Part shown: positions 42,148 to 51,804 of the stretch, one piece after another
Numbering within the stretch: the stretch's first letter is position 1
Layout: each line of letters begins with the position of its first letter
NCBI GenBank assembly: GCA_035604455.1
Contig: DATNIM010000021.1
Span: forward strand, 1,730 to 65,729
DNA from: Gemmatimonadales bacterium
GTDB taxonomy: Bacteria; Gemmatimonadota; Gemmatimonadetes; Gemmatimonadales; GWC2-71-9
Length of the DNA: 64,000 nucleotides
Direction: 5' to 3'
Program-made: the position numbers and the translations under genes
Notes under the pieces: model-generated
The model's database searches: none
What the model was told of the DNA's origin: nothing
What the model saw: only the letters and a program-made list of their open reading frames with translations

Positions 42148-43254
42148 GTGCCGCTAACGGAGTTCCTGATCGCGTGGCGCACGACCGCCCTGCATGACCG
42201 CGAAGTAGTTGACGCGCTTGTACATCCGGCGCACGCGGCGCCCTCCCCAGGGCTCCGCGCCGCGCTCGCCGGTTTTCGCGGCCGGTTCTACTGGTCGAAC
42301 GAACCGGACGGGCGGCACCTCGTGCTCACCCGGCCCTTCCCGCGCCGGCCGGAGCGGTGGGCCTTGCACGTCGCGTTGTTCCTCGCGACGCTCGCCACGA
42401 CGACGTTCGCGGGGGGCGTTCTGGTTGGCACGATTCCCTATGACAATCCGCTCGATCTCCTGAGCGGTACCTACCCGCTGCCTCACCCGCTTCTGCCCGC
42501 CTGGGCGGCGGGACTCGCCTTTTCGCTGCCGCTCCTCGCCGTGCTGCTCTGCCACGAGCTCGGGCACTACGTCACCGCGCGCTGGTACGCCCTCGACGTG
42601 TCGCCGCCATACTTCATCCCCGTTCCCCTGGTCCCGTCGTTCATCGGCACCATGGGCGCCTTCATCCGACTCCGCACCCTGCTCGCCGACCGCCGTCAGC
42701 TCTTCGACGTGGGTGCCGCGGGGCCGCTCGCTGGGTTTGCGGTGGCGCTGCCGCTGCTGTGGATCGGACTCGCCCGGAGCCACCCTCTGCCTGGTCACGG
42801 AGAGTTCGGGGGCATGCTCGTGGCGATCGGGGGTGATACGATCGGCTTGGGCGATTCTCTCGTCACGCTCGTCGTCCGACGCCTGGCGCTCGGGCCGACC
42901 GGCGCGGTGCTCATCGGGCCGCTCGCCTTCGCGGGTTGGGTGGGGATGCTCGTGACGATGCTCAATCTCCTGCCGATCTCCCAGCTCGACGGGGGTCACG
43001 TGCTCTACGCCGCGCTCCCGCGTTGGCACGGCCGGATCGCGTTTGCGTTCTGGGTCGCGATTATCGCGTTGGGATGGTGGTGGCGGGGCTGGCTCGTGTG
43101 GGGCGTGATCGTCCTCGCGTTGTCGCGGGGTCGCCTGACGCACCCGCCAGTGCTCGACGCCGTGCGCCCGCTGCCCTCGTCGCGCCGGTGGTCTGCGATC
43201 GCGACGCTCGTGCTGTTCGGGGTGACGTTCGCGCCGGTGCCGTTCCGCCTCTAG
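42148..43254 (+). CDS. Site-2 protease family (M50) membrane metalloprotease
   Basis: HELGHY zinc motif in a TM helix, later NLLPISQLDGGH, multiple TM segments. Confidence 0.85.
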   Translation: MPLTEFLIAWRTTALHDREVVDALVHPAHAAPSPGLRAALAGFRGRFYWSNEPDGRHLVLTRPFPRRPERWALHVALFLATLATTTFAGGVLVGTIPYDNPLDLLSGTYPLPHPLLPAWAAGLAFSLPLLAVLLCHELGHYVTARWYALDVSPPYFIPVPLVPSFIGTMGAFIRLRTLLADRRQLFDVGAAGPLAGFAVALPLLWIGLARSHPLPGHGEFGGMLVAIGGDTIGLGDSLVTLVVRRLALGPTGAVLIGPLAFAGWVGMLVTMLNLLPISQLDGGHVLYAALPRWHGRIAFAFWVAIIALGWWWRGWLVWGVIVLALSRGRLTHPPVLDAVRPLPSSRRWSAIATLVLFGVTFAPVPFRL

Positions 43255-43347
43255 CGCACCCGCGCCGGGCGCACACCGCGCCCGTACCGCCGATATTGCG
43301 TAAGTGAGCCAGCCTTTTATCTTTACGCAAACCAGCCCAGGCGCCGC

Positions 43348-43632
43348 ATGCCCGGACAACCGGCCCGATATTCAAGCTCCGCCCCTGGCGAAGCCGTTGC
43401 CCACGATCTTCCTCCGATTCGCTTCGATGGCCAGCTCATCCCCATACGTCTCTTCGTCCGGCGCACCGAGGACGGGATTTGGCGCGGGCATATCCGCTAC
43501 GGCGCGCCCGACACGGAGGGCGAGCGCTCGACGGCGGAGATCTTCTGCGCGATGTCTGAGCCGGATCTCTGGCAAGCGGTGCGGGATCTGCGGGACCACC
43601 ACTTGCGCGACCTTTATCGGTCCCTGCTGTGA
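43348..43632 (+). CDS. Hypothetical protein (94 aa)
   Basis: Reasonable G/C third-position bias. GTGA overlap with the downstream DHp-only ORF. No family recognised. Confidence 0.45.
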   Translation: MPGQPARYSSSAPGEAVAHDLPPIRFDGQLIPIRLFVRRTEDGIWRGHIRYGAPDTEGERSTAEIFCAMSEPDLWQAVRDLRDHHLRDLYRSLL

Positions 43633-43841
43633 CGGATCTCCCCGCAGATAGCGCGCCAGAGGTCACGGCGGCGATCCGGAAGCTGCGCCACGACCTGTCG
43701 AATCCGCTGGCTGCCGTGCTCGCCGAAGCTCAGCTCATCCTCCTGACCGCCGACGCGCTCGACGCCGAAACTGTCTCGGGCGTGAAACAGATCGAGGCGC
43801 TCGCGCGCAAGATGCGCGACATCCTCGAGCAGGTGGGGTAG
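43629..43841 (+). CDS. Stand-alone HisKA/DHp-like domain protein (70 aa)
   Basis: H-box-like IRKLRHDLSNPLAAVLAEAQLILL followed by a second helix VKQIEALARKMRDILEQV. No ATPase domain. Confidence 0.55.
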   Translation: MTDLPADSAPEVTAAIRKLRHDLSNPLAAVLAEAQLILLTADALDAETVSGVKQIEALARKMRDILEQVG

Positions 43842-43883: not shown

Positions 43884-45698
43884 TCAGCCGCCCGGTGTCC
43901 CTTCCGGCGCCGCGTCGGCCCGAGCGCCGTTCCAGAAGTACAGCGCGAGCAGGAAGCCGCTTGCCGTCCCGGTGGCGTATTTCACGGCGGCGGGTGCGTC
44001 ACTCGCCGACAACAGGCCCTCGATCGTGCCGGCCAGGGCGAGGAGAGTCACCACCGCGCCCATCATCCGTGCGGCCACCCGCCCTTCGATCACCAGCGCG
44101 TCACGACGCGTGCGCTCCCCCGGGGTGAGGATCGCGCCAGCCACCCGGAACCCGGCGGCGGCTGAAATGCAGATCGCCGTGAGCTCGAGTACGCCGTGGC
44201 CCGCGACGAACGTGGCGAGGTAGCGCGCGGCGTGGTAGTTCGCGAAGAGGCCGAAACCCATCCCGAGCTCGAGTCCGTTCTGTATGAGCAGCCAAACGGT
44301 GAGCGTGCCCGCGAGCACCCCGCCCACGAACGCCCAGAACGATACGAGCGCGTTGTTCCCGATGATCGCCGCCGCGATGAGGGGCAGCTCGCGTTCGGGT
44401 GCCTGCGCGTAGCCGATGCCGCGCCGTTGATTCTCGGCCGCTTCAGCCGCGCGGCTCACCATGAGCGGCATCAGCTCGTCCCCGAGCGTCGGTCGCGCGC
44501 GGATCATCGCGTAGCCGACAGCGGTCGGCACGCCGAGCAAGAGGGCCGCCGCCAGCACGTACCGGCGCGACGCCACGACCGCGGCCGGGAAGTCGCGCAG
44601 CAGGTAGCGCGCGACCGGGGTGCGCGCCTCGCCCCGGGCTCGATAGAGCGCGTTGTGCCCCGCACTGGTCACCCGTTCGAGGTATTCGATGACTGCCGGG
44701 TCGACCCGGTAGGTGTGTGCGCGCGCGAGATCGGCCGCGATTTCCCGATAACGTGCCGCGAACCGGAGCACCTCATCGGGTGAAAGGGCCGCGACCCCGC
44801 GGCGCTCGAGACGGGTAGCGACGTCGTGGAATTCCTGCCAGCTCGCGCGTTTGCCCGCCACGAAGCGCTCCGCCGTGACCGCGGTGCGGCCCGCGCCGGC
44901 CGCCGCACTGGTCGCGAAGCGCCCCCCCCGCCGGGCCAGTTCGGCCGCGTGCAACTCGGCCAGGGCCGCGACTGGATCGGTGGTTGGGTCGCGCAGAACC
45001 ACGCCCAACCGCTGGACCAGCTCCGCCGCCAGACGTCGCTCGACCGTCGGGTCGAGGTCGCCCGCCCGGGCGAGGAAACGATCGAGGAGTCGGAAGGCGG
45101 CCGCCGGAAGCTCGGGCGGGCCCTCCGCACGGGGGGCGTCAGCCCTGGCCGTCGCCGCGGGGCTCCACGTGCCGACCCGGTCGCGGACCACCACCGTGCC
45201 CGCCACGAGATCACCGAGTCGCTGATGGCGCGGGTGGAGGAAAATCATGGCGAGCCCTGGGAGTGCAGGAGCCAAGGGGAAGTAGCAATCGACGAGCCGA
45301 CACAGATTCCGCGTCACGGCCGCCCCGGCGGTGATGGGGTGCCCCGTGTCGAGTACGACGCGGATCCCGAGCAGCTCCTTCCCCCAGGTGCGCCCGCCGT
45401 GCAGGGCCTCGAAGAGTGTGAAATAGAGGAGAAGCGCAAAGGCGTTGAGGAGGCCAAGCAGCGCCAGGACCCAGGTCGAAAGCGAGGCGAAGTGAGAGAT
45501 CCCGAGGAGGAACGCCCCGACCACGACGAGCGCCGTACCGCCCACGGTGGCGACGACCGTGTCGAACAGGGCCGCCGCCGTTCGCGACCCGAGCCCGGCG
45601 AGCTCGAGGCGCAGGGCGACGTGCTCGGGCGTTTCGATGCCAAGGTGCTCGCGCAGCGTGATGTCCGTGCTGGTTTGCTCTCGCGCTGCGGGGCTCAC
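43884..45698 (-). CDS. Fusion of an RDD-family membrane domain and a SpoIIM-like (stage II sporulation protein M) membrane domain
   Basis: N-terminus: LELAGLGSRTAAALFDTVV...RHQRLGDLVAGTVVV (RDD). C-terminus: IIGNNALVSFWAFVGGVLAGTLTVWLLIQNGLELG...GHGVLELTAICISAAAG (SpoIIM). Confidence 0.8.
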   Translation of the reverse strand: MSPAAREQTSTDITLREHLGIETPEHVALRLELAGLGSRTAAALFDTVVATVGGTALVVVGAFLLGISHFASLSTWVLALLGLLNAFALLLYFTLFEALHGGRTWGKELLGIRVVLDTGHPITAGAAVTRNLCRLVDCYFPLAPALPGLAMIFLHPRHQRLGDLVAGTVVVRDRVGTWSPAATARADAPRAEGPPELPAAAFRLLDRFLARAGDLDPTVERRLAAELVQRLGVVLRDPTTDPVAALAELHAAELARRGGRFATSAAAGAGRTAVTAERFVAGKRASWQEFHDVATRLERRGVAALSPDEVLRFAARYREIAADLARAHTYRVDPAVIEYLERVTSAGHNALYRARGEARTPVARYLLRDFPAAVVASRRYVLAAALLLGVPTAVGYAMIRARPTLGDELMPLMVSRAAEAAENQRRGIGYAQAPERELPLIAAAIIGNNALVSFWAFVGGVLAGTLTVWLLIQNGLELGMGFGLFANYHAARYLATFVAGHGVLELTAICISAAAGFRVAGAILTPGERTRRDALVIEGRVAARMMGAVVTLLALAGTIEGLLSASDAPAAVKYATGTASGFLLALYFWNGARADAAPEGTPGG

Positions 45699-45738
45699 AC
45701 GGACATCTTACCGCGGCCCTCGTGGGGGAGCGAGTTGC

Positions 45739-46602
45739 GTGGCTGATCTCCGGCCCCTGGACTTTGGCGAGCTGTTGGATGGTTCGCTGGTGATCTATCG
45801 CCGGCAGTTCGGGCTGTTCCTCCGCCTCGCGGCGATCACGCTGGCGGTTCCCTTCCTTCTCCTCGTCTACGTCGGCGCACGCTACTTCGGGTCGCTGTCC
45901 GTGTTCTTTCGCCTCCCGAGCGTCGGTGAGGGGCTCTCGATCCTGGGCGTTGCGATGGCGTTCTACCTCGCGAGCGTCGTCCTTACGGCGGGGACGGTCC
46001 GCGTAATCTCTGACTCCTATCTCGGACGGACTCCGACCTTGCGAGAGGCCCTGGCCTTGGGCGTCGCGAAGCTCGGCCCGCTCGTGTGGGTGGGACTTGC
46101 CAAGGGAGCGATCCTCGGACTGATCGGCCTTGGGATCGCGGTGCTCGCGACGTTGCTCGCCGTGTTCGCGCGAAGCGGCGGGGTCGCGGCGGTCGCCATC
46201 CTGGTCGGCAGCCTCGGCGGCTGTTGGGTCATCGGGTTCGTGCTGTGTGGCTATGCCGTGACCACGCCGATCGTCGTCCTCGAGGCCCTGCCGCACGCGA
46301 CTGCCGCGTTTCGACGGTCGTGGGAGCTCACGAAGCAATACAAGCGCAAACTCCTGGGTCTCTGGCTCGTCGCGTTCCTGCTGACGAACACATTGCCGTC
46401 CCTGGCCTTCCGCGCTTTAGGGGTCTTGGCGCAGGGGCCCTGGCCGGTGATCGGCCTGGCGTTGACAGCGGCGGGGTACGTCCTGCCCCTGGTCTTGGCG
46501 CCGATTCTCGCGGCGGTGATCACCCTCATGTACTACGACCTCCGCGTGCGTCGCGAAGGCTTCGACCTCGAGATGCTGGCTCAGCACCTGGAGTCGCTCT
46601 GA
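45739..46602 (+). CDS. Polytopic membrane protein (first gene of the MoxR cluster)
   Basis: GTG 45739: VADLRPLDFGELLDGSLVIYRRQFGLFLRL..., about six TM segments, ending YYDLRVRREGFDLEMLAQ. The upstream part of the track ORF overlaps the divergent gene. Confidence 0.7.
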   Translation: MADLRPLDFGELLDGSLVIYRRQFGLFLRLAAITLAVPFLLLVYVGARYFGSLSVFFRLPSVGEGLSILGVAMAFYLASVVLTAGTVRVISDSYLGRTPTLREALALGVAKLGPLVWVGLAKGAILGLIGLGIAVLATLLAVFARSGGVAAVAILVGSLGGCWVIGFVLCGYAVTTPIVVLEALPHATAAFRRSWELTKQYKRKLLGLWLVAFLLTNTLPSLAFRALGVLAQGPWPVIGLALTAAGYVLPLVLAPILAAVITLMYYDLRVRREGFDLEMLAQHLESL

Positions 46603-46661
46603 CGGCGGGCGGGCCCACACTGCCCATTCAGTCGGACTCGCTCCGGCGCGCGCTCGCCGAA

Positions 46662-47216
46662 GTGTTTGCCCGGCCGGCCTACCGATGGGCAGAAGGCTAC
46701 ATCCCGCTGCGCGGGTTGGCACGCGCGATCGGGCGTGTGCTCGCTTGGCTCGGTGCACTCGAGCGGCGTCATCCAGCGGCGTCGCGCGCCGTCGTGGTGG
46801 GTCTCGTAGTACTCCTGGCCCTCCTGCTCGCGCACCTGGCCTATGTCCTCTGGAGCGTGACCCGTCCGACCGTTCGCACGTCCAGTCCGGGAGGTGGCGC
46901 GCCGAAGCCGGCCGTCGATACCCCGGAACGCCATCGCGATCGAGCCGAGGCCCTCGCGCGGGCAGGCCGCTTCACGGAGGCTCTGTCCCAGCGATTCGTG
47001 GCTGTGGTGCTGGAGCTCGACCGCGGTCGATTCGTCAACTTCCATGAATCCAAGACCCCCGCCGAGTATGTCGGCGAGCCGCGGCTCGACGAGTCTCGCC
47101 GTCGCTCGCTTGGCAGCCTCGTCGCGGCGCTCTACCGCCACGTCTTCGGCGCGGTCCCCTGCGACGAGCGGGGGTACCGGGAATTTGAGGCGGTTGCGGC
47201 GGCGGTCGAGCAGTGA
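46662..47216 (+). CDS. DUF4129-like protein (start uncertain)
   Basis: One TM helix, then RHRDRAEALARAGRFTEAL...FHESKTPAEYV...LYRHVFG. The first canonical start in frame is GTG 46662. The reading frame is open from about 46600 (a CTG start is possible). Confidence 0.6.
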   Translation: MFARPAYRWAEGYIPLRGLARAIGRVLAWLGALERRHPAASRAVVVGLVVLLALLLAHLAYVLWSVTRPTVRTSSPGGGAPKPAVDTPERHRDRAEALARAGRFTEALSQRFVAVVLELDRGRFVNFHESKTPAEYVGEPRLDESRRRSLGSLVAALYRHVFGAVPCDERGYREFEAVAAAVEQ

Positions 47217-48430
47217 GCGGGTCGCGGAAGACGGAGGCGGCGCTTGTGGTCGGGCTCCTCGGCGCACTCGGGGTAGCGCTCTGGGCGGGACGGCACGAGG
47301 CGGCGCGAAGTCCCGATGAGGATCCGCGCGCCTCGAGTTTCGGAACCGGCCCGCAAGGGAGCGGCGCGGTGTTCGATGTGCTTGATCGTCTCGGCTGGGT
47401 GGTCGAGCGCCGTCGGCGACCCCTCCTCGATCTCGCCACGGCGCAGCCGCGGCCAGCGGTCTTGCTTGAGCTCGCTCCGGTCATGCCGCTGTCGCCCGCC
47501 GAGCTGGCGCAAACGACGAGCTTCATCCTCGACGGCGGGGCGGTGGTTGCCGCGGGGGAGGGAGGGGGGATTGCCGCGTGTGCGGGATGGGCCCCCGTTC
47601 ACGGCGCCGGCCTGTTGGCCGAGGCCGACACGATCGACGTCCGGTCAGAATCGGGGCTTGTGCTCCCACCGGTGAGCGACGTCTTGGACCGAACCGGCGA
47701 GCGAACCCCCGCGCGGGGCGGGTGCGCAGATTTGGTGGGGCTGCGGGAGGACACCCTGCTCGTCACGCGTGACGGCCGGCCCGTGGTCGTGGACATCCGG
47801 TACGCGCGCGGAGGTCGGCTCACGCTGTGGGCCGATGCCGCCTATTTTCGCAACGAGACGTGGCGCGCCGGCAGCGCCCCGTACTTCGTAGCCCCCCTTC
47901 TCGTGCCCGAACGGGGTGCTGGCCCGATCGTGTGGGACGAATACCACCAGGGTTTCGGCGCCGAAGCGTCGCTCAGCGCGGCGACGTGGCAGTGGCTGGC
48001 AGGGACGCCGGGGGGGTGGGCGCTGCTCCAGCTCGTGGGCGTCGTCCTGGTCGGAGTGGCGGGCGCGGCGGTGCGGTTCGGGCCCGCGCGGCCGGTCATC
48101 GTGCGGAGCCGCCGGTCGCCGCTCGAGCATCTCGAAGCCCTGGCTGCTGGGCTCGAAGGCGCACGCGGCTCGGATGTGGCCGTTCGCCTCGCCGTAGCGG
48201 GCTTGCGCCGGCGGCTCGCGCGCGTGGGGCGGGCGACCTCGGCGGACGACCGCGAGTGGCTCGCCACACTCGAACGTGCGGCCCCAACGCCCGCGGGTCA
48301 GCTAGCGGTGCGGCGGCTAGAGCGCAGCGTACACGAACCCGGCGGACCGGAGCGCGCGCTCGCGGCCGCCCAAGCGGTGGAGGACGTGTGGGAGGAGCTG
48401 CACCCGCGCACGACGCGCGTGAAATCCTAG
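47213..48430 (+). CDS. DUF4350-like membrane-anchored protein
   Basis: GTGA overlap with the upstream stop. N-terminal TM, GAVFDVLDRLGWVVERR, WDEYHQG, second TM, C-terminal helical region. Confidence 0.65.
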   Translation: MSGSRKTEAALVVGLLGALGVALWAGRHEAARSPDEDPRASSFGTGPQGSGAVFDVLDRLGWVVERRRRPLLDLATAQPRPAVLLELAPVMPLSPAELAQTTSFILDGGAVVAAGEGGGIAACAGWAPVHGAGLLAEADTIDVRSESGLVLPPVSDVLDRTGERTPARGGCADLVGLREDTLLVTRDGRPVVVDIRYARGGRLTLWADAAYFRNETWRAGSAPYFVAPLLVPERGAGPIVWDEYHQGFGAEASLSAATWQWLAGTPGGWALLQLVGVVLVGVAGAAVRFGPARPVIVRSRRSPLEHLEALAAGLEGARGSDVAVRLAVAGLRRRLARVGRATSADDREWLATLERAAPTPAGQLAVRRLERSVHEPGGPERALAAAQAVEDVWEELHPRTTRVKS

Positions 48431-49344
48431 GAGCGATCGAACGGGTTGTGCTCGGCCAGCAGGCCGCTACGCGGGAGGTGCTGATCTGCCTCCTCGCCCG
48501 CGGCCACGCACTCCTCGAAGGTGTTCCGGGAACGGCCAAAACGCTGCTCGTTCGCGCGCTCGCGCTCACCCTGCAGGTGCGCTTCCAACGGATCCAGTTC
48601 ACGCCCGATCTCATGCCGGCAGATATCACGGGCGTCTCGCTCCTGTCCGGCACGCACGAGTTCATCTTCCGGCCGGGCCCGGTCTTCGCGGACGTCGTCC
48701 TCGCCGACGAGATCAACCGAGCCCCGGCGAAGACGCAGGCGGCGCTCCTCGAAGCCATGCAGGAACGGACCGTCACGGTCGACGGGACGGTGCATCCGCT
48801 GTCAGAGGCCTTCACGGTGTTCGCCACTCAGAACCCGATCGAGTTCGAGGGCACCTATCCTCTGCCCGAGGCCGAGCTCGACCGCTTCATGATGAAGATC
48901 GTCATCGGCTACCCGGCCGAGGCCTTGGAGCAGGCGATGCTCAGGCGCTACGTGGAAGGCTTTGAGGCTGACCGGCCGGCGACCTTCGGCATCGCTCCGG
49001 TCACAGATAGAGCCGGCCTCGAACGGTTGCGCGGGGAGGTGGAGCGAGTGCACGTCGAGCCGCAGGTGACTGCGTACATCACGGCCGTGGTTCGCGCGAC
49101 CCGCGAGACCGCCTCGTTGACCCTCGGTGCGAGCCCGCGCGCCGGCGTCGCCCTGCTCAAGGCCACTCGCGCGCAGGCGGTTTTGGAAGGTCGCGACTAC
49201 GTCATCCCCGACGACGTGAAGCAACTTGCAATTCCCGTGTTGCGGCACCGGGTTCGGCTCGCCCCGGAGCTCGAGCTGGAGGGTGTGACACCCGACGCGG
49301 CGCTGCGCACCGTGCTGGACCGCGTGGACGTTCCCACGACGTGA
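48388..49344 (+). CDS. MoxR-family AAA+ ATPase
   Basis: HALLEGVPGTAKTLLVRALA (Walker A), VVLADEINRAPAKTQAALLEAM (Walker B / sensor), TVFATQNPIEFEGTYPLPEAELDRF. GTG 48388 overlaps the upstream gene by 43 nt. The start is uncertain. Confidence 0.92.
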   Translation: MGGAAPAHDAREILGAIERVVLGQQAATREVLICLLARGHALLEGVPGTAKTLLVRALALTLQVRFQRIQFTPDLMPADITGVSLLSGTHEFIFRPGPVFADVVLADEINRAPAKTQAALLEAMQERTVTVDGTVHPLSEAFTVFATQNPIEFEGTYPLPEAELDRFMMKIVIGYPAEALEQAMLRRYVEGFEADRPATFGIAPVTDRAGLERLRGEVERVHVEPQVTAYITAVVRATRETASLTLGASPRAGVALLKATRAQAVLEGRDYVIPDDVKQLAIPVLRHRVRLAPELELEGVTPDAALRTVLDRVDVPTT

Positions 49345-50651
49345 TCCTGCCAACCCGCCGCGCGCTTTGGAGCGCCGCCGCCGCGGCGCTCCTCGCGCTC
49401 GCGGGGTACTGGATTCCGGGCGCACGCGCGGCGCTGGTCGTCGTGGATCTGGCCCTCATTGCCGGGATTTGTTTCGACTTCTGGAGCGTCCCTCGGCCAG
49501 GGATCACGCGCGAGTCGTCGACCGCATTCTCGGTCGGCCGCTCGACGCCCGTCGCCTACCGGTGGGCCAATCCGTCAATTCGGCGGCTGCGCTTGCGGGT
49601 CCGCGAGGTGCGGCCGGACCTGCTCGGCGGGCTCCAGCCCCCGCGCGAGCTCACGGTGGAGCCTCGGGCCACGCTGACCGAGACCGTCCACGTCGTGCCC
49701 GCGCGACGGGGCCGGACGCGGGGAGACGACGGCGCTATGGTGGTCGATGCCCGTGGTCCCCTCGGTCTCGGGGTGCGGCGCGGCACCGTCAAGCTCCCTT
49801 GGGGGGCCCTGGTGTATCCGCCGTTAACGGCCGCGCGACTCGCCTCCGTTGCCGAGGCCCGGCGGCACCGGGCGCCGGGCCTGACGCCGGTCCGGCGCAT
49901 CGTAGGCGAGGGGCGCCAATTCGAATCCCTGCGCGATTGGGTCCCGGGCGATGACCTCCATCACATCGACTGGAAGGCGACGGCGCGGCGGCGGAAGGTC
50001 ATGCTGCGGCAATACGAAGTTGAGCGACGCCAGCAAGTCGTGCTGGTCATCGACACCGGACGACTGCTCAGCGCGCAAATCGGCGGAGGCACGCGGCTCG
50101 ACTATGTTGTCCGCGCGGCGCTCGATCTCGCGTACGCGGCGAGCGAGCTCGGCGACGACATCGGCGTCATGGCCTTCTCCGAAGGGGTCGACCACTTCGT
50201 GGCGCCGGCGCCCGGTCGCCGCGGGCTCCGGAGCGTCGTCGAGGTATTGGCCGTGCTCGAGCCCCACCTTGCGGAGCCCGATTACCCCGGGGCCTTTCGT
50301 TACCTGGCCCTCCGCAACCGTAAGCGCGCCCTCACGGTCGTCTTCACGGATCTCATCGACCGCCTGGCGTCCCAGGCGCTCGTCGCGAACGTCGCCGCAC
50401 TTCGCGCGCGGCACTTGCCGCTCGCCGTCACGCTGCGCAATTCCGGGATCGACGCGATCGCTGCCCTCCGGCCGACGGTCGCCGCGGACGCGTATCGGAA
50501 GGCCGCCGCCGAGGAGCTCCTCCGCGCCCGCGAAGACGCGCTGGCCGTGATGCGCGGGGGGGGAGTGGTGGTGCTCGATGTCCCGCCGGAACGGGCCGCC
50601 GAGGGCGTCGTCACGCAGTATCTCGCCCTCAAGCGGCGGGGACGCCTGTAG
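49341..50651 (+). CDS. DUF58 domain protein (vWA-like fold)
   Basis: GTGA overlap with the moxR stop. Two N-terminal TM helices. Signature: FESLRDWVPGDDLHHIDWKATARRRKVMLRQYEVERRQQVVLVIDTG. Confidence 0.85.
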   Translation: MILPTRRALWSAAAAALLALAGYWIPGARAALVVVDLALIAGICFDFWSVPRPGITRESSTAFSVGRSTPVAYRWANPSIRRLRLRVREVRPDLLGGLQPPRELTVEPRATLTETVHVVPARRGRTRGDDGAMVVDARGPLGLGVRRGTVKLPWGALVYPPLTAARLASVAEARRHRAPGLTPVRRIVGEGRQFESLRDWVPGDDLHHIDWKATARRRKVMLRQYEVERRQQVVLVIDTGRLLSAQIGGGTRLDYVVRAALDLAYAASELGDDIGVMAFSEGVDHFVAPAPGRRGLRSVVEVLAVLEPHLAEPDYPGAFRYLALRNRKRALTVVFTDLIDRLASQALVANVAALRARHLPLAVTLRNSGIDAIAALRPTVAADAYRKAAAEELLRAREDALAVMRGGGVVVLDVPPERAAEGVVTQYLALKRRGRL

Positions 50652-50658
50652 CGGTGTG

Positions 50659-51804
50659 CTAGAAGTGGGTCTCGTCGGTCGGGGCGCGCGTGGGCGCAGG
50701 CGCCCGTTCCCGCGGGCGGCGCTCGAGTTTCCAGGCGCTCGTTTGCCAGTTGTCGGGGCGCTCGACGGTCCTCACCCAGGGCGGCAAGGCCAGGCCCAAG
50801 TAGACCGCGAGCGCCGCTGCATACGGTTCGTAGAGGACGCGAAGCTCGGCGAGCTCGTCGGCGAGCCCACCGTCTCGGAGCTTCATGCCGCCTTGGATGA
50901 GGCGGGTACGCAGCCGGTCCAGTTCCACATCCGGCAACCGCTCCGCGACCGGTTCAGTCGGAGGCTTGGTGAAGACCTGGGCCAGGTCGACGACGGCGTG
51001 CCGCGCCATCGCAAATGTGAGACGCGCTTGTCGCACGCAGAATCCTTCCAGCCCCACCATCACGAGGGCGCTCGTATCGAGGATCGTCACGAGTGCCGCG
51101 AGCCACGACTGGTTGTTGTGCTGCGATCGGAAATACGCGAGAGCGGGATAGGAGAGATGACTTTCGAGCACCTCTGCGGCCCACTGTTCCCACTCCCGTA
51201 GCAGGTCCGCCAGCCGCTCATGCTTGGGGTCGTCGCGATGACGCCAGAGGAGTTCCCCGGCGCTCGGCGGTGTCCCAGCGCGGGCGTCGAGCAGCGAAAT
51301 CGCTATCTCGCGCCGAGAGAAGCCCTGATAGATGACCGGCAGATAGCCGATGACGATCGCGAGAAACGCAAAGCCCGTACCGGACTCGACCACTGTCAGC
51401 GCGCGGGCCACCGCCGTTTGGGGCACGACGTCTCCCAGCCCGAGCGTGAAGAACGTCGTGCCGCTCATGTACAGGTCGGTTCCAAACCCGCGCGCCGCGC
51501 CGGGGGAGCTGAGGGCGGATCCGGCGGCCCACTGGAGGCCCCCGAAGGCTACCACGATACTGGCGGCCCAGAGACTGAGGAGCATGAGCAGCGAAAGCGG
51601 GCCGTAGAAACTGAGGAAGGCCTGTTGCCGGCCGCCTCGCAGAGTGGCGGCGATCGCGCGCCAGGGGCGCCACGAGGCGCGATAGAAAAGCCGCGTTAGG
51701 CGAAGGCGTCCGCTCGCGCGGCGCGGCAGGATGACGGTTTCGAAGGCGTCCCACAGCACCCCCCCGAGGAGCAGCAGGGCTCCAAGGCCGACGACCCATC
51801 GCAC
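50659..51804 (-). CDS. Two-TM potassium-channel-like protein with a large cytoplasmic C-terminal domain
   Basis: Pore-like TTFFTLGLGDVVP (TxGxGD) flanked by TM helices. GTG start. Confidence 0.65.
   Translation of the reverse strand: MRWVVGLGALLLLGGVLWDAFETVILPRRASGRLRLTRLFYRASWRPWRAIAATLRGGRQQAFLSFYGPLSLLMLLSLWAASIVVAFGGLQWAAGSALSSPGAARGFGTDLYMSGTTFFTLGLGDVVPQTAVARALTVVESGTGFAFLAIVIGYLPVIYQGFSRREIAISLLDARAGTPPSAGELLWRHRDDPKHERLADLLREWEQWAAEVLESHLSYPALAYFRSQHNNQSWLAALVTILDTSALVMVGLEGFCVRQARLTFAMARHAVVDLAQVFTKPPTEPVAERLPDVELDRLRTRLIQGGMKLRDGGLADELAELRVLYEPYAAALAVYLGLALPPWVRTVERPDNWQTSAWKLERRPRERAPAPTRAPTDETHF

Follow-up and report, generated by a model that had tools for sequence, protein, structure and literature searches.

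A MoxR ATPase and five membrane proteins are encoded side by side in the genome of a Gemmatimonadales soil bacterium, and the question raised by this locus is what the six proteins might do together. The genes occupy positions 43884-50651 of a 64,000-nucleotide (nt) stretch of contig DATNIM010000021.1 (assembly GCA_035604455.1), which is called the window in the following. One gene on the minus strand (g1, encoding a fusion of RDD and SpoIIM domains) lies next to a five-gene operon on the plus strand, which encodes a polytopic membrane protein (g2), a DUF4129-type protein (g3), a DUF4350 protein (g4), a MoxR AAA+ ATPase (g5) and a DUF58 protein with a von Willebrand factor A (vWA)-like domain (g6). 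All seven families (RDD, SpoIIM, g2-type, DUF4129, DUF4350, MoxR and DUF58) are therefore present within this region. The reading that is preferred here, at a probability of about 60%, is that the six genes encode one conserved inner-membrane module or complex, assembled or remodelled by MoxR and DUF58, and that this locus is the Gemmatimonadales version of the mycobacterial Rv3689-Rv3695 cluster. A single membrane complex is suggested by the tight coupling of the genes, by their co-inheritance, by the conservation of the set through rearrangements and by one clear and two tentative gene fusions; the role ascribed to MoxR and DUF58 is proposed by analogy with other MoxR/vWA pairs.

Association and coupling of the cluster genes

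Within the Gemmatimonadota, 151 genomes were sampled for the RDD-SpoIIM fusion and for a homologue of g4. The g4 homologue is found in 71 of the 151 genomes, which are 71 of the 72 fusion-positive genomes and none of the 79 fusion-negative genomes. In 66 of these 71 genomes the two genes are at most 10 kb apart, being divergent, as in the window, in 42 cases and convergent in 24. Even within genera, some genomes have the set and others do not, so that it is acquired or lost as one block.

For the comparison across phyla, 80 loci with the closest relatives of this MoxR were taken from one-genome-per-species collections, and their six-frame open reading frames (ORFs) were scanned with custom-built hidden Markov models (HMMs). 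Of these loci, 55 have two or more of the five partner families within 10 kb, and 49 have three or more. Such multi-partner loci occur in the Gemmatimonadota, Actinomycetota, Acidobacteriota, Bacteroidota, Ignavibacteriales and Anaerolineales, and further in the Planctomycetota, Verrucomicrobiota, Poribacteria and the Alpha-, Beta- and Gammaproteobacteria; as judged from this gene content, the cluster spans more than 10 bacterial phyla. A first-pass annotation of the window had described these families as frequent neighbours in Actinobacteria and Chloroflexi, and indeed, inside the Gemmatimonadota as well as in the wider comparison, they are found together much more often than chance would allow. 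Chance adjacency is rejected by the 151-genome co-occurrence together with the 80-locus scan.

The order of the genes varies between lineages. In the Bacteroidota, an RDD gene on the minus strand precedes a series SpoIIM - g2 - DUF4129 - DUF4350 - MoxR - DUF58, and a Prevotella locus has the full order of the window, with RDD and SpoIIM unfused. Two orders are seen in the Proteobacteria, one being RDD - SpoIIM - long g2 - DUF4350 - MoxR - DUF58 and the other DUF4129 - DUF4350 - MoxR - DUF58 - SpoIIM - RDD. In the Actinomycetota (Nocardia and many further loci) the order is g2 - DUF4129 - DUF4350 - MoxR - DUF58, followed by SpoIIM on the minus strand and RDD on the plus strand; RDD and SpoIIM are thus two genes located after DUF58, whereas in the window they form one polypeptide, encoded divergently and before the operon. 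The mycobacterial Rv3689-Rv3695 cluster consists of the same families as the window cluster, with Rv3689 as a membrane protein, Rv3691 as DUF4350, Rv3692 as MoxR (MoxR2), Rv3693 as DUF58, Rv3694c as SpoIIM and Rv3695 as RDD (PMC8191103), and has its Mycobacterium abscessus counterpart in MAB_0386c-0392c. In Mycobacterium chelonae, the whole orthologous set (MAB_0386c-0392c type) shifts its expression together (PMC8191103). When compared with these loci, the window copy is an ordinary member of the cluster, set apart as a module only by the RDD-SpoIIM fusion that runs through the whole class; particular to the locus are this fusion, the CTG at the start of g3 and the non-canonical MIDAS motif (metal ion-dependent adhesion site) of the cluster type, described below. 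With its presence in more than 10 phyla and in Mycobacterium tuberculosis, the module is among the more widespread bacterial clusters for which no tested function was found: literature searches on the cluster families and locus tags gave no functional study and no assigned function, as the first-pass annotation had stated.

The genes of the operon are tightly coupled. The GTGA overlaps between g3 and g4 (47213-47216) and between g5 and g6 (49341-49344), as well as the 43-nt overlap between g4 and g5 (48388-48430), had been listed before and were found again when the sequence was re-read. An overlap is present at all four operon junctions, that of g2 and g3 being formed via a CTG start of g3. 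The gapless join previously placed at about 46600 is retained with this CTG; no ATG, GTG or TTG start is present nearby. The in-frame codon overlapping the stop codon of g2 is CTG 46599 (CTGA, 46599-46602), and the automatic gene call puts the start of g3 at GTG 46662, giving a protein of 184 amino acids (aa). It is most likely, from the sequence comparison, that g3 starts on the CTG of the coupled junction, because the start at 46662 would take away 21 residues, among them D13 and A18, which do not vary across 17 orthologues of about 198-211 aa, because the same junction is a GTGA overlap in two relatives (G011 and G004), and because a GGAG motif is located 5 nt upstream of CTG 46599, with nothing comparable upstream of 46662. 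Alternatively, the assembly may carry a wrong base here; over 7693 bases a Logan contig shows no difference, but this contig may not be independent of the assembly of the window itself.

Membrane proteins of the cluster

Domains were assigned with Pfam, and a match is called above cut-off with respect to the threshold of Pfam itself. The RDD, SpoIIM, DUF4350, MoxR and DUF58 assignments of the first-pass annotation all exceed this cut-off. The hydropathy profiles are also in agreement with its statement that all partners except MoxR have transmembrane helices, with about three plus five to six segments in g1, about six in g2, a single one in g3 and two in g4; g6 has a hairpin at its N-terminus, and MoxR has no such segment.

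In g1, the RDD domain (PF06271, 68.2 bits) covers residues 33-167 and the full length of the profile, the SpoIIM domain (PF01944, 88.7 bits) covers residues 385-564, and the middle part corresponds to DUF8413 (PF28475; precomputed match). The RDD part (about 17-278) consists of three transmembrane helices and a cytoplasmic tail, and the SpoIIM-like part (about 272-600) consists of an N-terminal helical domain and a five-helix transmembrane core. The separate RDD and SpoIIM proteins of Nocardia align to residues 17-278 and 272-577 of g1, respectively, and those of Rhizobium to residues 24-241 and 258-591. Thus g1 corresponds to two complete proteins joined end to end, in agreement with the single-gene fusion noted at first inspection.

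At least 1689 database proteins match the fusion, and 119 of the best 120 have RDD, DUF8413 and SpoIIM, the sole exception being a 452-aa fragment; the named organisms among the fusion matches listed are Gemmatimonadales. A full-length fusion in a single open frame is present in 72 of the 151 Gemmatimonadota genomes, at identities down to 31%, and these genomes cover the family and order of the window organism and other families of the class Gemmatimonadetes. In the other Gemmatimonadota class of this sample, RDD matches only are found. Among the 80 MoxR-relative loci, the fusion occurs only in a Gemmatimonadota locus (L012, Longimicrobiales), whereas in every other lineage examined RDD and SpoIIM are separate yet adjoining, either on the same strand in one or the other order or divergently. 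This adjacency is kept in Bernardetia in the absence of a nearby MoxR gene. The suggestion that RDD and SpoIIM normally act together fits this context of three arrangements, and the fusion is, at the level of gene organization, the strongest genomic argument so far that the two families work as a pair.

The AlphaFold2 (AF2) model of g1, calculated with 51 sequences, has a mean predicted local distance difference test (pLDDT) score of 73.9 and a predicted template modelling (pTM) score of 0.62, with values of 80-97 for the SpoIIM transmembrane core. When this model is compared with the Protein Data Bank (PDB) using Foldseek, no meaningful match is found (best E 0.37, query-normalised TM at most 0.13). 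A set of polar residues of the SpoIIM part (N-N, N-G, H-G-x-x-E, R and E) is invariant in six phylum-level homologues, spanning the Gemmatimonadota, Bacteroidota, Proteobacteria and Actinomycetota. Because these invariant polar residues lie in transmembrane helices and no fold relative is found among the solved structures, one may speculate that the RDD-SpoIIM unit is not a passive scaffold and is instead the working core of an undescribed class of membrane transporter or intramembrane enzyme, which MoxR and DUF58 would assemble or gate by way of the tails that the DUF4129 and DUF4350 proteins have in the cytoplasm. This proposal is unlikely to be correct; if true, the cluster would be an AAA+-controlled membrane machine conserved in more than 10 phyla, including M. 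tuberculosis. The fused g1 is also a natural single-chain construct for structural work.

The membrane protein g2 is not covered by a Pfam family of its own (best own match 16.9 bits). Its family comprises 4014 representative clusters (50% identity) at E ≤ 1e-3, and 30 of 49 diverse relatives match PF10110 (GPDPase_memb; best E 8e-12), the others matching DUF7847, DUF7544 or DUF975. The earlier description as a membrane protein is therefore correct and can be refined: g2 is, by these profile matches, a remote member of the GPDPase_memb/DUF975/DUF7847 superfamily. Its C-terminal motif YYDLRVRxEGFDLE (46530-46602 of the window) is invariant in 49 diverse homologues, with Y265, D267, R269, R271, E273 and D276 as the invariant residues, and this cytoplasmic motif is a possible docking site.

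The g3 protein has one hydrophobic segment (residues 58-89) and a probable C-terminal DUF4129 domain. Its own match to DUF4129 (PF13559) is 16.2 bits (E 0.011, profile positions 3-66 of 69), below the cut-off of 24.8, so that the family name given at first holds for g3 itself only through its relatives: most orthologues, at 50-66% identity, carry the PF13559 match and some are named DUF4129 proteins by NCBI.

One ORF, about 515-610 aa long, takes the place of the g2 and DUF4129 genes in several Gamma- and Betaproteobacteria (Catenovulum, L006:10384-11931, and also loci L023, L038, L040, L042 and L075). This ORF is weakly collinear with both proteins and is tentatively regarded as a second fusion in the module. 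A Bernardetia plasmid (L010:7986-9839) encodes a 617-aa SpoIIM-like protein whose gene and an RDD gene point away from each other; neither MoxR nor DUF58 is encoded nearby. The start of the C-terminal extension of this protein resembles the N-terminus of g2, which tentatively points to a SpoIIM-g2 fusion. The similarities in both cases are weak (hhalign E 1e-4 to 0.013; relaxed HMM domain E 0.015 to 26).

The g4 protein matches DUF4350 (PF14258) with 41.8 bits, above cut-off, and DUF4381 at its C-terminus with 20.6 bits, below cut-off. Its AF2 model (69 sequences, including other phyla; pLDDT 87.2) shows, in this order, an N-terminal transmembrane helix, an extracytoplasmic alpha/beta domain, a second transmembrane helix (264-292 by hydropathy) and a cytoplasmic four-helix bundle. 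In Foldseek comparisons the ectodomain resembles the middle domain of GH42 beta-galactosidase (E 1.6e-4), the N-terminal GIFT domain of IFT52 (5fmr/5fms; target-normalised TM 0.49-0.54) and also class-I glutamine-amidotransferase folds; the predicted fold of the ectodomain is GIFT/GldG-like. No cysteine or histidine is conserved across homologues in this domain of about 200 residues, and therefore the ectodomain is probably non-catalytic. The best-conserved part of g4 across phyla is the transmembrane helix with the cytoplasmic tail. A tblastn search of g4 against plasmids gave no match.

The MoxR-DUF58 pair and the readings of the cluster

The only soluble component of the cluster is g5, an MRP-type MoxR AAA+ ATPase, whose matches to AAA_3 (201.7 bits) and AAA_lid_2 (82.6 bits) are far above the cut-offs. 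The Walker A (GVPGTAKT) and Walker B (LADEINR) motifs are intact, the residues G45, P47, G48, K51, T52, D107 and E108 are invariant across five phyla, and g5 is 45-51% identical to the MoxR proteins that the corresponding clusters of Prevotella, Catenovulum, Rhizobium and Nocardia encode. The DUF58 gene is located directly downstream of MoxR, and 73 of the 80 related MoxR loci also have a DUF58 gene. The g6 protein has an N-terminal transmembrane hairpin followed by a vWA-like domain; it matches DUF58 (PF01882) with 98.2 bits and VWA_2 with 26.4 bits, just under the cut-off of 27 bits. At the MIDAS position (residues 238-242) its sequence is DTGRL and not the canonical DxSxS, and D-x-G-[RK] is found at this position in four aligned orthologues from other phyla. 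Among 48 cluster-type DUF58 orthologues, DxSxS is present in none and DxGxx in 32. Two DUF58 paralogues of the same genome (contigs C44 and C85) keep the MIDAS, as DQSGS and DVSRS, and the contrast between cluster and non-cluster proteins rests on these two. Judged by these alignments, the non-canonical MIDAS is a feature of the whole cluster type.

Related pairs of known function provide the model for the pair in the window. In NorQ/NorD, CbbQ/CbbO and RavA/ViaA, MoxR and vWA partners are assembly or insertion chaperones (PMC11834572 and PMC12067865), in which an AAA+ hexamer and a vWA adaptor mature or remodel a target complex. The clients of the NorD, CbbO and ViaA systems are known and their adaptors depend on a canonical MIDAS, whereas the MIDAS of the DUF58 protein of the window is degenerate; this hints that the cluster adaptor works unlike NorD, CbbO or ViaA. 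By analogy, a cytoplasmic MoxR hexamer would be docked at the membrane by DUF58, through its transmembrane hairpin and cytoplasmic vWA-like domain, and would spend ATP on assembling, gating or remodelling a complex of integral-membrane partners. The partners acted on would be the RDD-SpoIIM unit, the GPDPase_memb-like g2 and the DUF4129 and DUF4350 proteins, of which the last two would probably make contact with MoxR and DUF58 through their helical tails in the cytoplasm. The only large extracytoplasmic part would be the GIFT-like domain of the DUF4350 protein, which suggests that the output of the complex faces the envelope.

Several points weigh against one dedicated membrane complex. The Fisher test for co-occurrence of the fusion and g4 (5e-43) ignores phylogeny and includes no phylogenetic correction. 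In 22 of the 80 loci, MoxR is present with or without DUF58 and with no partner family (in Bacillota, archaea and some Chloroflexota), so that the motor pair also exists independently of these partners. The usual grip of a vWA adaptor on its client may not apply to a DUF58 vWA domain that has no canonical MIDAS. In the model of g1 the linkers 174-194 and 258-277 have low confidence or are disordered, and the topology of g3 is ambiguous, with arginine-rich flanks on both sides of its hydrophobic segment. The searched literature contains no interaction or phenotype experiment for this organism or for the whole cluster.

The idea of a membrane- or envelope-remodelling machine, proposed for the window at first inspection, is not new, as it was anticipated by Makarova, Galperin and Koonin (2015), who predicted a secretion or membrane-remodelling complex of DUF4350 (arCOG01314), MoxR (COG0714) and vWA proteins and noted that SpoIIM homologues adjoin genes of vWA proteins and COG0714 ATPases in bacteria (PMC5898192). 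Their DUF4350 protein shares with g4 the signal anchor, the GldG-like ectodomain and the C-terminal transmembrane helix, with MoxR and vWA genes in the operon, and the relation to GldG/IFT52 and to the GH42 middle domain that they obtained with HHpred is reproduced by the Foldseek comparisons of g4. RDD, DUF4129, the g2 family and the fusion are not described as parts of their set. It is conceivable, following their proposal for the archaeal neighbourhood, that the cluster is a novel protein-secretion or surface-assembly system, in which the GldG/IFT52-like DUF4350 domain acts outside the membrane and the polytopic proteins form the conduit, as the predicted GIFT/GldG-like fold of the g4 ectodomain and the predominance of membrane proteins would allow. 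The archaeal neighbourhood has S-layer or Ig-like partners, whereas the window cluster encodes neither a secreted cargo nor a protein of the S-layer or Ig-like kind nor any outer-membrane component, the families that accompany the archaeal genes (arCOG02884 and others) are missing, and the sole large extracytoplasmic domain has no conserved catalytic residues; a secretion system is therefore considered quite unlikely.

It is equally improbable that the cluster serves as a cell-wall hydrolase scaffold or acts at the division site, with RDD-SpoIIM bringing in peptidoglycan-remodelling enzymes whose activity would be under the control of MoxR, by analogy with the DMP (SpoIID-SpoIIM-SpoIIP) engulfment complex of Bacillus subtilis. 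The SpoIIM protein of that complex belongs to the same Pfam family as the SpoIIM part of g1, and a related MoxR-DUF58 operon of Rhizobium (RL3499-RL3502) reportedly affects envelope integrity. Both Rv3694c and Rv3695 of mycobacteria were recovered together with Rv0954, a divisome protein (PMC8093794), an observation from a single mass-spectrometry list, and M. tuberculosis MoxR1 has been reported to aid the export of the peptidoglycan hydrolase RipA (reviewed in PMC12067865). No hydrolase gene is present in or adjoining the cluster, and SpoIIM homologues and DUF4350-MoxR-vWA sets are also found in archaea, which have no peptidoglycan (PMC5898192). When compared with its B. subtilis relative, the SpoIIM domain of the window is fused to RDD and linked to MoxR, in an organism that is not a spore former. 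The link to SpoIIM-dependent engulfment drawn in the first-pass annotation is not borne out, as the genome has no SpoIIP and its single SpoIID-domain gene is unlinked, on contig C129, and a sporulation or engulfment reading is rejected on these grounds.

The operons of the Bat (Bacteroides aerotolerance)/MRP type in Bacteroides, Riemerella, Francisella and Borrelia resemble the window cluster in having an MRP-type MoxR followed by DUF58 in a membrane-associated operon (PMC11834572). A stress module of this kind, which would involve no dedicated machine, would shield proteins of the membrane or of respiration from oxidative, thermal or hypoxic stress, and in Riemerella, Francisella and others Bat-type MoxR-DUF58 operons do influence how well the cells withstand stress (PMC11834572); the MoxR2 orthologue of M. 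abscessus is also among listed hypoxia-responsive genes (PMC12071387). The window cluster differs in its other membrane partners and in its DUF58 protein, with the transmembrane hairpin and non-canonical MIDAS, and no BatA/BatB-type vWA or TPR domains are found in the six cluster proteins or in the flanking genes. Moreover, the five partner families are specific to this kind of cluster and have stayed with MoxR in spite of many rearrangements, a pattern that favours a dedicated complex, and a separate MoxR-DUF58 pair on contig C44 could be the Bat module of this genome, so that a Bat-type function of the cluster is very unlikely. A MoxR-vWA biological-conflict or anti-phage system, of the kind in which such pairs occur (Kaur et al. 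2020, as cited in PMC12067865) and to which the 35.9-bit score of the bpMoxR profile on g5 might point, is hardly credible for a single-copy cluster with host-like GC content that is present across the whole class and has no effector domain, the bpMoxR match lying beneath the far stronger AAA_3 match. The defence reading is rejected, since PADLOC gives no system match beyond a weak 19.6-bit AAA match on g5.

MoxR-DUF58-transglutaminase operons, namely the PFNA cluster of Bifidobacterium (PMC12067865) and those of the Pseudomonas TgpA type, also combine MoxR and DUF58 with a membrane protein that has DUF4129 at its C-terminus. The Pfam description of DUF4129 links this domain to transglutaminases. 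The cluster described here has no transglutaminase core, its DUF4129-type domain standing alone behind one hydrophobic segment.

Layout of the locus and neighbouring genes

The coordinates of the six genes are listed in Table 1. The short divergent gap between g1 and g2, reported previously, is borne out by the sequence, and because of its length the promoters must sit within the opposing genes. A scan for consensus promoters and terminators gave nothing exceeding shuffled controls. A GGGGGAG motif is present 8 nt upstream of the GTG start of g2. The starts of g1 and g2 agree with the N-termini of their homologues, and the start of g4 at 47213 is backed by homologues of 402-423 aa covering 99-100% of the query, one gene call favouring 47246. 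The GC content of the region is about 70%, similar to that of its surroundings. Five of the six proteins match no specific NCBIfam family, and the sixth, MoxR, has only AAA matches far below cut-off.

Table 1 Positions of the cluster genes and of the divergent gap in the window
Feature	Positions	Strand	Length	Source
g1, RDD-SpoIIM fusion	43884-45698	-	604 aa	
g1/g2 divergent intergenic gap	45699-45738		40 nt	read from sequence
g2, polytopic membrane protein	45739-46602	+	287 aa	
g3, DUF4129-type protein	~46599-47216	+	~205 aa	
g4, DUF4350 protein	47213-48430	+	405 aa	
g5, MoxR AAA+ ATPase	48388-49344	+	318 aa	
g6, DUF58/vWA protein	49341-50651	+	436 aa	

The cluster is flanked by Rho, an M50 peptidase and two small ORFs on one side and by an Ion_trans_2 channel protein on the other side; these genes are unrelated to the cluster, which indicates that the borders given in the first-pass annotation are right. 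The M50 gene, which is site-2-protease-like, is followed by a 94-aa ORF and a 70-aa HisKA-like ORF (42148-43841), and all three converge on the end of g1. Directly after the cluster, positions 50659-51804 of the minus strand encode a 381-aa protein with a potassium-channel-like Ion_trans_2 pore domain.

The genes g1-g4 are present in single copy in this genome, and there are three MoxR genes. The two further MoxR genes are located at C44:23800-25260, with an adjoining canonical DUF58 gene, which may form a Bat-type module, and at C29:44060-44920. A degenerate copy of the module is found on the plasmid pCff1 of Curtobacterium flaccumfaciens (L008, 5400-12200), where an RDD gene is accompanied by a frameshifted SpoIIM gene and by fragmented MoxR and DUF58 genes.

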